A DNA stretch of 35,297 nt, taken from assembly GCA_044343155.1 (NCBI GenBank), contig JAVZSS010000003.1, forward strand, positions 1 to 35,297, written 5' to 3'. The notes below the pieces were generated by a model. That model saw only the letters and a program-made list of their open reading frames with translations, was not told the origin of the DNA and searched no databases. The stretch comes from Candidatus Aenigmatarchaeota archaeon (lineage in GTDB: Archaea; Aenigmatarchaeota; Aenigmatarchaeia; CG10238-14; SpSt-28). The position numbers and the translations under genes were made by a program. Below are positions 22,879-24,310 of the stretch, one piece after another. Position 1 is the first letter of the stretch; each line of letters starts with the position of its first letter.

Positions 22879-22937
22879 ATTTATTTTTACTATACAAATA
22901 TAAAAACCTTATATATTCCTTAATTCAATATAATTCT

Positions 22938-22961
22938 ATGGTGTTCCAACGCCAATCCTAA
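22938..22961 (+). other. Putative leaderless leader peptide MVFQRQS upstream of serS
   Basis: ATG 29 nt after the start of TTATATA (22909); Ser codon at position 7; CGCC-AA-TCCTAA complementary to TTAGGAGGTG (23009-23018). Confidence 0.5.
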
Positions 22962-23026
22962 AAGTGGCAAATATTTTCTTAGTTTCAATTCTATATTTTA
23001 AGATAATCTTAGGAGGTGAATAAACT

Positions 23027-24310
23027 ATGCTAGATATCAATCTAATTAGGAATAATCCTGAAATAGTTAAAAAGGACCTAGAAAAGAGGGGGGCTTTGGA
23101 AAAAATAAAGCTAGTTGAAGAAGTAATTAAGTTGGATCGAGAATGGAGAAAAAATGTTAAAGAGCTAAATAAATTGAGAGAAGAAAGAAATAAAATAACA
23201 GCAGAAATTGCAAAATTAAAGAAAGAAGGTAAAGACGCTTCAGAATTAGTAAAAATTTCTCAATCTTTGGTAGAAAAAATTGAAAATCTAGAAATAGAAG
23301 AGGAAAATAAGAGAAGAAAAATAAGAGATATTTTAATGAATCTTCCTAATATACTTCACGAAAGTGTTCCTATAGGAAAAGATGAAAATGATAATGTTGT
23401 AATAAAAACTTGGGGCAATATAAGAAAATTCGATTTTCAGCCAAAAGATCATCAAGATTTAGCTCTCCCATTAAATTTGATAGATGTAGAAAGAGCTGCG
23501 AAAGTAGCTGGTTCTAGGTTTTATTATTTGAAAGATGCTCTTGTTGAATTAAATTGGGCTTTGATAAAATATGGTTTAGATTTTCTTAAGTCTAGAGGAT
23601 TTAAACTATTTCAACCGCCGTATATGCTTAGAAGAGAGGCTTTGGAAGGAGCGATATCTTTTAGTGATTTTGAAGATATGATATACAAAATAGAAGGAGA
23701 AGATTTGTATCTAATAGGTACTGCTGAACATCCATTGTTAGCATATCATATGGACGAAATCTTAGATGCTAAAGAATTACCACTAGCTTATGCAGGAATA
23801 TCACCTTGTTTTAGAAAGGAAGCGGGAACTCATGGAAAAGATACTAAAGGTATATTTAGAGTACATCAATTTGAAAAAGTAGAGCAATTTGTTTTTTGTA
23901 GACCTGAAGAAAGTTGGGAATGGCATGAAAAGCTGCTTAAAAACGCCGAAGAATTTTTCCAAAGTCTAGAAATTCCTTATAGAGTTGTTAACATTTGTAG
24001 CGGAGATATAGGAAGTATCGCAGCAAAAAAATATGATATAGAAGCTTGGTTACCCGGGCAAGGAAAATATAGGGAGGTTGTTTCTTGTAGTAATTGTACA
24101 GATTATCAAGCTAGAAGAGCAAACATTAGATTCAGAGACGGAAATGAAATAAAATTTGTCCATACATTAAATTCAACTTTGGTAGCAACTGAAAGAACAA
24201 TAATAGCGATAATGGAAAACTATCAGCAAGAGGATGGCAGTATAATAATACCAAAAGTTCTAAGAAAATACTTAAATGCAGAAAAAATAACTAAAAACGG
24301 TTTAGAATAG
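23027..24310 (+). CDS. serS: Seryl-tRNA synthetase (bacterial/eukaryotic type)
   Basis: Coiled-coil arm, LIGTAE, FRKEAG, GIFRVHQFEKVE, SCSNCTDYQARR, HTLN. Confidence 0.98.
   Translation: MLDINLIRNNPEIVKKDLEKRGALEKIKLVEEVIKLDREWRKNVKELNKLREERNKITAEIAKLKKEGKDASELVKISQSLVEKIENLEIEEENKRRKIRDILMNLPNILHESVPIGKDENDNVVIKTWGNIRKFDFQPKDHQDLALPLNLIDVERAAKVAGSRFYYLKDALVELNWALIKYGLDFLKSRGFKLFQPPYMLRREALEGAISFSDFEDMIYKIEGEDLYLIGTAEHPLLAYHMDEILDAKELPLAYAGISPCFRKEAGTHGKDTKGIFRVHQFEKVEQFVFCRPEESWEWHEKLLKNAEEFFQSLEIPYRVVNICSGDIGSIAAKKYDIEAWLPGQGKYREVVSCSNCTDYQARRANIRFRDGNEIKFVHTLNSTLVATERTIIAIMENYQQEDGSIIIPKVLRKYLNAEKITKNGLE

Follow-up and report, generated by a model that had tools for sequence, protein, structure and literature searches.

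Upstream of serS, the seryl-tRNA synthetase gene in a 35,297-nt stretch of Candidatus Aenigmatarchaeota archaeon DNA (contig JAVZSS010000003.1, analysed over its full length and called here the window), lies a very short upstream open reading frame (uORF) that ends on a Ser codon. Our comparison of synthetase leaders suggests, with a probability that we put at about 0.65, that the leader of serS is one of a group of cis-acting leader-peptide sensors located ahead of synthetase genes in Aenigmatarchaeota. Sequence comparison establishes the conserved frame, the codon cognate to the downstream enzyme, the fixed geometry and the U-rich tract that such leaders share. We are somewhat better than evenly confident of a fuller picture, a ribosome-based regulon of at least six synthetase genes (Ser, Thr, Ile, Val, Asn and Leu). 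In this regulon a leaderless mini-ORF of 6-14 codons would place one cognate codon in the A site, an internal Shine-Dalgarno (SD)-like word and a special preceding codon (CAA, CGG, TGG or TTT) would hold the ribosome, and the waiting time would set the output without a protein regulator or a folded riboswitch.

The serS leader had first been described from the letters of the window alone, and direct reading confirms the features given in that sequence-only reading. The promoter that it proposed is in place, with AAAAACC at 22902-22908 and TTATATA at 22909-22915, as is the uORF ATG GTG TTC CAA CGC CAA TCC TAA at 22938-22961 with Ser as its last codon (MVFQRQS; peptides are written here up to their stop codon), and the distance from the start of the TATA box to the uORF ATG is 29 nt, as it had claimed. 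The serS SD site is also present, although its coordinates, 23009-23018, are one base lower than had been implied. The same 29-nt spacing, which it had quoted for two other genes of the window, is found at trmB (TTTTAAAT at 30497, ATG at 30526) and, on the minus strand, at the LUD gene (TTTAAATA at 4077, ATG at 4048).

This spacing is characteristic of the source genome, a 609-kb assembly of 34 contigs that is 86% complete and has 28% GC, and in which the window is contig C23; its DNA occurs in hot-spring metagenomes (16 DNA-type runs). Genome-wide, TATA-like 8-mers concentrate at positions -29 to -26 relative to gene starts, where 24, 31, 28 and 27 genes have one and the background is about 5 genes, and an SD-like word precedes just 99 of the 582 called genes. 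Because TATA-like words cluster at these positions and SD-like words are few, most genes can be taken as leaderless. In this setting serS is atypical, with a long leader and a strong SD site. The serS uORF, in turn, fits by its TATA distance a leaderless ORF with a 5′-terminal AUG, the transcript start being placed by promoter geometry. Among 40 leaders, 24 have a TATA-like 8-mer 33-24 nt before the uORF start under a strict pattern, and on inspection by eye most of the rest come close to it. ARAGORN with intron search found just 33 tRNA genes in this genome, including an intron-bearing Ser(GGA) candidate on contig C32; it found no Thr(UGU) and no Ile tRNA in the 86%-complete assembly, where split or intron-bearing tRNAs may escape detection.

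To assess conservation we compared the DNA upstream of serS in 30 relatives of the same order, 80 archaeal and bacterial species genomes and 80 metagenome contigs. The element is present in 17 distinct serS leaders, drawn from four families of the order and from metagenome contigs, and all serS-bearing members of the window's genus carry it with the exception of one genome, G008. An in-frame ATG or GTG opens the frame in 17 of the 17 leaders and an in-frame stop closes it 0-4 codons past the box in all of them; the two other frames mostly extend much further, to a median of about 7 codons, or meet no stop at all. Beyond MVFQRQS, the predicted peptides include MAMPLQSI, MVMSLQSAIFN and MVMPYQSF. 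The pair CAA-TCC is kept in 16 of the 17 leaders, AATCC is invariant and the two bases preceding it are conserved in at least 90%. In the source genome just 5.4% of Ser codons are TCC, and codon bias therefore does not account for its constancy. Among the 160 loci from species genomes and metagenome contigs, which include Thermococcus, Bathyarchaeota, Thaumarchaeota, Thermoproteota, Micrarchaeota, Pacearchaeota and bacteria, the serS box is confined to close relatives and one contig labelled just 'uncultured archaeon' (L060), the sole possible case outside Aenigmatarchaeota, and a template scan of serS loci outside the phylum gave 3 chance-like matches. Within the source genome, an nhmmer profile search recovers the serS copy as the only intergenic copy of its motif; two further copies, one on contig C29 with an equal score and a weaker one on C8, lie inside coding regions and were rejected as chance matches. 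Judged by this comparison, the serS uORF is far beyond chance occurrence.

A cognate-codon uORF also precedes other synthetase genes. In the source genome 19 synthetase genes were located by Pfam, 16 of which were named by NCBIfam, and the upstream DNA of 17 was read. Besides serS, thrS and ileS show the uORF architecture, and the remaining synthetase genes look leaderless, valS among them. Furthermore, a scan of the same genome that was blind to gene function, requiring a TATA at -31 to -25 and an ATG ORF of 3-16 codons located 40-170 nt before a gene with an SD-like word, returned 5 matches, of which 3 are serS, thrS and ileS. Across the loci compared, thrS carries CAA-ACA in 9 of 28, from three taxonomic families (M-x-G-[DEG]-x-Q-T-x(1-2)-stop); ileS carries CGG-ATY in 20 of 30 (MDRRIDF, MSGLRIA, MKGDTRI); valS carries CGG/TGG-GTA in 7 of 30, plus one locus with CAA-GTA (MKGERWVQF, MEGEHRVF); asnS carries CAA/TTT-AAY in 8 of 24 (MHGGYQNS, MASGQQNN); and leuS carries CGA-CTT-CTC-CTA in 1 of 30, plus one doubtful case (MGERLLL). 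In a phylum-wide sample the ileS template extends to four families outside the order (6 of 53 loci), with CAA, TTT or CGG preceding the Ile codon. A match inside the upstream gene (L017) was left out of the counts as a false positive, and one genome (G024:C9, L244 / L400) was not scored since the DNA upstream of its ileS is masked by an N run.

The template was not found before the Pro, Gly, Lys, Asp, Ala, Met, Arg and Trp/Tyr genes of five genomes rich in such leaders (G034, G001, G004, G022 and G033), with the exception of one uORF, MKGGKVC, discussed below; Glu, Phe, Cys and His synthetase genes were covered in the window's own genome only, or not at all. In G008, the member of the window's genus mentioned above, the serS leader is absent, the thrS box has become AAA-AGA, the CGG of ileS has become TGA and valS is leaderless (L003, L210, L239 and L274), so that a single lineage seems to have lost all of these leaders, or let them decay, at the same time, which speaks for the sensor family. 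At nine leuS loci (L297-L299, L301, L305 and L320-L323) a tRNA-like gene, judged by eye from a conserved GGGCCCGGCGGGATTTGAACC-type sequence, lies directly upstream on the opposite strand, and leuS is leaderless there.

To examine the match between codon and enzyme, we tabulated the residue at codon 7 for all distinct ATG uORFs of 7-14 codons located 40-170 nt upstream, at every locus of each family. The cognate residue occupies this codon in 10 of 17 cases for serS (Ser), 9 of 18 for thrS (Thr), 6 of 15 for valS (Val) and 5 of 13 for asnS (Asn), with off-diagonal counts of 0-2 among these four families. There is no such diagonal at codon 7 for ileS (Ile 1/32 against Leu 7/32) or leuS (Leu 1/7), because their sensor codon occupies codon 5 or 6. 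A second, blind cross-table took the residue following Q, R or W at codons 4-7 of all distinct ATG uORFs; it is almost purely diagonal, with Ser 15/18 for serS, Thr 9/14 for thrS, Ile 16/16 for ileS, Val 7/11 for valS, Leu 1/2 for leuS and Asn 4/6 for asnS, and off-diagonal cells of 0-2. Nested starts within a leader each enter these counts, and kinship makes the genomes non-independent; what matters in the cross-table is that six gene families agree, more than the raw counts. In the 58 tabulated leaders an in-frame stop follows the sensor codon after 0-6 codons without exception. On the points at which the sequence-only reading exposed itself to refutation, namely conservation of the uORF, conservation of the Ser codon and cognate codons at other synthetase genes, the comparison came out in its favour. 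Its proposal of a cognate-codon leader at the transcript start acting as a sensor of charged tRNA is thus well supported by the conserved uORF and by the diagonal over six families.

The leaders also share an internal geometry. A GGNG word (mostly GGTG) stands ahead of the codon that comes just before the cognate one; measured to the first base of that codon, the distance is 13 nt in 12 leaders, all of them serS, and 9 nt in 26 leaders, which belong to the other families. At real genes of the source genome, the distance from GGTG to the start codon ranges from 9 to 13 nt, and 35 of 82 cases fall in a sharp peak at 9 nt. The internal spacing therefore equals a genuine SD-to-start spacing, and pairing with the 3′ end of 16S rRNA would put the cognate codon in the A site; it is from this spacing that we suggest that GGNG could position the ribosome during elongation. 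The codon before the sensor, which would occupy the P site, is limited to CAA, CGG, TGG, TTT or CGA. CGG is invariant before the Ile codon within the order's ileS leaders and common before the Val codon, and it accounts for only 0.5% of Arg codons.

After the stop codon the leaders have a single feature in common, a U- and pyrimidine-rich, G-poor tract that follows immediately. The first 30 nt after the uORF average 14.1 T, 8.7 A, 4.5 C and 2.4 G over 58 leaders, T exceeds A in 48 of them, and TTCTT occurs in 31 as compared with 8 for its reverse complement. No conserved terminator or antiterminator hairpins were found among the leaders. At three valS loci of one genus (L270-L272, genus g1) and two ileS loci (L259 and L260) there is no SD-like word, and a TATA-like ATTTTAATA or TTTATTTA stands about 30 nt before the synthetase ATG, a hint that another promoter, a leaderless one, may follow the uORF immediately. 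We also observed that AATTCTAA or TCTAA recurs 8-20 nt before the SD or start codon in ileS, serS, asnS and valS leaders, that TCTAA is present in 26 of the 58 leaders as compared with 5 for its reverse complement, and that TTTATTTA recurs after the uORF.

These features can be assembled into a candidate mechanism. Transcription would start about 29 nt after the TATA box, as promoter geometry indicates, and the mRNA would begin at the uORF AUG. A ribosome would initiate on this 5′-terminal AUG, as on the leaderless genes of the source genome, and translate five codons. GGNG, by then 9 or 13 nt behind the P-site codon, could hold it through the 3′ end of 16S rRNA, and the held ribosome would have codon 6 (CAA, CGG, TGG, TTT or CGA) in its P site, and its A site would contain the one cognate codon, TCC in the case of serS. 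Dwell time at the sensor codon would be set by how much charged cognate tRNA is available. While it waits at codon 7, the ribosome would cover the mRNA 5′ end, the nearby stop and the start of the U-rich tract, and would alter the yield of translatable synthetase mRNA; bacterial systems lead us to expect, by analogy, more synthetase when the charged tRNA is scarce. In this scheme we infer that the uORF is translated and that ribosomes pause on it, as well as the direction of the response and the nature of the output. Given a real sensor, our tentative first choice for the output is termination or cleavage control at the U-rich tract. Protection of the 5′ end from decay is a fainter possibility, and SD unmasking is unlikely, about as unlikely as some output of another kind.

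Several observations weigh against reading these leaders as sensors. The transcript start, the translation of the uORF and any response are all deduced from sequence. In one serS leader (L025) TAA-TCC replaces CAA-TCC, and the Ser codon would go unread. In serS leaders codon 5 almost always ends in C, a constraint at the nucleotide level that goes beyond what a peptide model asks for. The distribution is patchy, as 18 of the 30 serS loci of the order are without the element, and serS there looks leaderless and has no SD. A Tyr/Trp-type synthetase gene (L470, G034:C3) is preceded by a template-like uORF, MKGGKVC, that has no cognate codon; as it contains neither a Tyr nor a Trp codon and lacks a well-placed TATA word, it is either a chance occurrence or an exception to the cognate rule. 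Most leaders carry a single cognate codon where classical attenuators use runs: one is present at the sensor place in all serS, thrS and valS leaders, and it is only the leuS leader and some of the asnS and ileS leaders that have two or three. The sequence-only reading had named this as the weakness of its proposal; it turns out to be the rule across the system. SD accessibility, duplex z-scores and covariation reveal no conserved RNA structure joining the uORF to the SD. Finally, 8 of the 58 leaders have no SD-like word before the synthetase gene, and in several of these a TATA-like word stands about 30 nt ahead of its ATG, so that a single common output step is hard to picture.

The sequence-only reading had favoured a specific switch, in which the Ser-codon box pairs with the serS SD and a ribosome paused at the Ser codon melts the helix and turns serS translation on. 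The helix that it drew (CGCC/GGUG plus UCCUAA/UUAGGA, 10 bp) does exist in the window's leader, where the duplex is worth -11.4 kcal/mol (z = -2.6 against 300 shuffles), and GGAGG could be a pairing partner for the C-rich CCAATCC and its rare TCC codon. In 8 of 17 serS leaders the predicted fold includes some pairing of box and SD, and in 8 of 16 at least 0.6 of the SD pairing partners fall within the paused-ribosome zone. Furthermore, the ileS leader of the source genome (L237) can form an uninterrupted 12-bp duplex in which codons 6-9 of the uORF (ACCUUAAAAUUU) match its SD region (AAAUUUUAAGGU) perfectly, at -14.0 kcal/mol (z = -4.7); the ileS of the closest relative retains only ACCUU/AAGGU of it. 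In the fold of the window's own leader, however, the switch is not favoured, as the minimum-free-energy structure excludes the anti-SD helix (-16.4 kcal/mol, versus -11.9 when it is forced) and its summed pair probability is 0.02. Nor is it conserved across leaders: the duplex between sensor zone and SD zone, set against shuffles, has a mean z of 0.06 over 16 serS leaders, only 2 of which are below -1, and of about 0 for thrS, valS and asnS. The SD is unpaired with a probability of 0.28 both in the real leaders and with shuffled spacers (lower in 24 of 50 leaders), the boxes differ among six gene families while the SD is constant, and eight leaders are entirely without an SD-like word. We therefore consider this switch unlikely as the basis of the family. 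Individual leaders do have an SD-hiding helix (L001, L013 and L237), and thermodynamic prediction alone leaves room for such masking.

Other accounts would dispense with a translated sensor, or with sensing altogether. A T-box-like RNA, in which the conserved codon pairs with the anticodon of an uncharged tRNA without translation and the ORF is incidental, would explain why the sensor codon is fixed at the nucleotide level (always TCC, ACA or GTA) together with the three bases before it; the 5′ TGGY of many serS leaders could in principle, read by eye, also pair with the NCCA end of a tRNA. This is nonetheless distinctly improbable. Conservation extends over only some 20 nt, within which no helix covaries, and an Rfam search of the serS leader with E up to 10 returned just noise, at E = 6.3, the sole gathering-level match in the window being the archaeal signal recognition particle RNA at 20608-20881 (+; RF01857, 142.9 bits). 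Moreover, an AUG stands at the inferred transcript start, all 58 leaders close their frame shortly after the sensor codon while the other frames stay open, and the Gly codon of the template varies at its third base (GGT, GGC, GGG and GGA), as expected of a translated frame. Two structural candidates were also dropped. A 5′ hairpin of AUGGYG with NNCCA in serS leaders has 77.6% paired cells versus 75.1% in shuffles, of which 45 in 500 do as well, and shows no covariation; for mimicry of a tRNA 3′ end or T-arm by the box, considered by eye, the would-be discriminator base varies. A uORF that is translated but constitutive, serving ribosome loading, re-initiation or mRNA stabilisation for the few SD-led genes with its cognate codon as a by-product, suits an architecture that is rare in a mostly leaderless genome, the leaders without an SD site, where re-initiation after the uORF could operate, and the failure to detect a structural switch. 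It leaves unexplained the invariant codon/enzyme match in six gene families and the rare codons TCC and CGG, and we give it very little credence. The least probable account, to our mind scarcely tenable, is a DNA operator or promoter element, or an mRNA site bound by a protein such as the synthetase itself, just after the TATA box. The serS box does occupy +15 to +21 relative to the inferred transcript start, where archaeal repressors are commonly placed, and its flanks are weakly palindromic in some serS leaders. Yet the frame, start and stop are conserved, and the box changes with the downstream enzyme exactly as the genetic code dictates. E. coli thrS is autoregulated by its synthetase through a tRNA mimic in its own mRNA; here the conserved word is the sense codon (TCC, ACA, ATY, GTA or AAY) and not the anticodon that such a mimic would carry, which makes binding of a tRNA mimic by the enzyme unlikely. 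A ribosome that reads the cognate codon remains, in our view, the best account of these leaders.

Features of the serS and thrS leaders in the window, with the ileS leader of the same genome (strand as + or -).
Feature	Position	Strand	Basis or remark
serS leader promoter: B recognition element-like AAAAACC and TATA box TTATATA	22902..22915	+	direct reading; spacing matches the genome-wide TATA peak
leaderless uORF MVFQRQS	22938..22961	+	start, frame and stop conserved in 17 distinct serS leaders
SD-like word GGTG within the serS uORF	22940..22943	+	13 nt ahead of codon 6
box CCAATCC: last base of codon 5, CAA (Gln, codon 6) and TCC (Ser, codon 7, proposed sensor)	22952..22958	+	
spacer from uORF stop to SD, T- and pyrimidine-rich, including TATTTTCTTAG	22962..23008	+	
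serS SD site TTAGGAGGTG (contains GGAGGTG)	23009..23018	+	direct reading
serS, seryl-tRNA synthetase, 427 amino acids	23027..24310	+	Pfam Seryl_tRNA_N and tRNA-synt_2b
thrS TATA-like word ATATAAAT	starts 33237	-	28 nt upstream of the uORF
thrS uORF ATG GTA GGG GAT CAA CAA ACA TTC ATT TAA (MVGDQQTFI)	33180..33209	-	Gln-Thr are codons 6-7
thrS SD site GGAGGTG	33149..33155	-	pyrimidine tract TTTTTTCTTATTCTTTTCTC just before
thrS, threonyl-tRNA synthetase, 603 amino acids	31332..33143	-	NCBIfam NF003068, E = 6.9e-216
ileS (locus L237)	contig C32, 11353-14277	-	TATA box 29 nt before uORF MDCRINLKIF; SD word AAGGTGAT

Beside the serS leader an ORF of 68 amino acids runs in the opposite direction from 22878, and the gene opposite in direction beyond the thrS leader (33469-34890) is the archaeal CCA-adding enzyme.

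If the leaders work as proposed, they would be the first case of leader-peptide sensing of charged tRNA in Archaea, with a single-codon design unlike that of bacterial attenuators, and ribosome-mediated sensing would operate amid leaderless mRNAs, hairpin-independent termination and very few regulators. The leaders would offer a mutable test system for SD-like pausing of elongating archaeal ribosomes, for the tuning of A-site decoding by the P-site codon, and for the coupling of a ribosome at the 5′ end to transcription termination or mRNA decay. For DPANN archaea, with their tiny genomes, they suggest how host-dependent cells could track the supply of each amino acid separately, and the one-codon template could serve as a compact, programmable amino-acid sensor. 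In the literature accessible to full-text search we found no report of leader-peptide or T-box-like control of archaeal synthetase genes.

Bacteria match synthetase levels to charged tRNA through leader peptides and T-boxes, and each offers a partial parallel. In pheM-pheST and in the trp and his attenuators, several cognate codons in a row are coupled to alternative terminator and antiterminator hairpins. The Aenigmatarchaeota leaders resemble them in placing a cognate-codon leader peptide before a synthetase or biosynthesis operon, with a U-rich tract downstream, but differ from classical transcription attenuators in being mostly single-codon and without conserved hairpins; archaeal RNA polymerase terminates at U-tracts without a hairpin. 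T-boxes, which in Firmicutes control serS, thrS, ileS, valS and leuS, are RNAs about 200 nt in length, and their binding of tRNA involves no translation. The targets are shared, as is the use of one enzyme-matching specifier codon per leader; the leaders described here, on the other hand, contain an ORF, are conserved over about 20 nt and have no Rfam match. In the ermC/cat and tnaC systems, it is a drug or free tryptophan that provokes the stall, through the nascent peptide. The likeness to these, and to ermC mRNA stabilisation, is that a ribosome stalled near the 5′ end in a short leader ORF changes the fate of the mRNA (by exposing the SD, shielding the 5′ end from decay or obstructing a termination factor), whereas the trigger proposed here is the charged-tRNA supply for one codon. 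In prfB and dnaX, internal SD-like sequences hold elongating ribosomes and the outcome is frameshifting. Our leaders have an SD-like word at a comparably fixed, short distance upstream of the decisive codon, but the effect that we propose, from spacing statistics only, is a longer or better positioned decoding pause.

Among archaea, the available account of ribosome profiling in Haloferax noted uORFs and assigned them no function (PMC7261190). The closest described system that we found is bacterial, namely the leaderless polycysteine short ORFs of mycobacteria, or 'Cys ribulon' (Canestrari et al., 10.1101/834739). As far as its available description goes, it uses runs of Cys codons to control cysteine metabolism, and its output is an RNA duplex that hides a ribosome-binding site (10.1101/834739). 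In the Aenigmatarchaeota leaders, by contrast, the hosts are archaeal, the signal is mostly one codon at a fixed position, the targets are synthetases and no conserved SD-masking duplex was found. Both systems share, on that description, a short ORF at a leaderless 5′ end, control of downstream genes through pausing at the codon of one amino acid, and several loci per signal. Both marks of a leader-peptide sensor, a conserved short ORF and a codon that matches the downstream enzyme, are found by sequence in the leaders that we describe, and the system is best filed as a putative archaeal, single-codon form of leader-peptide sensing.

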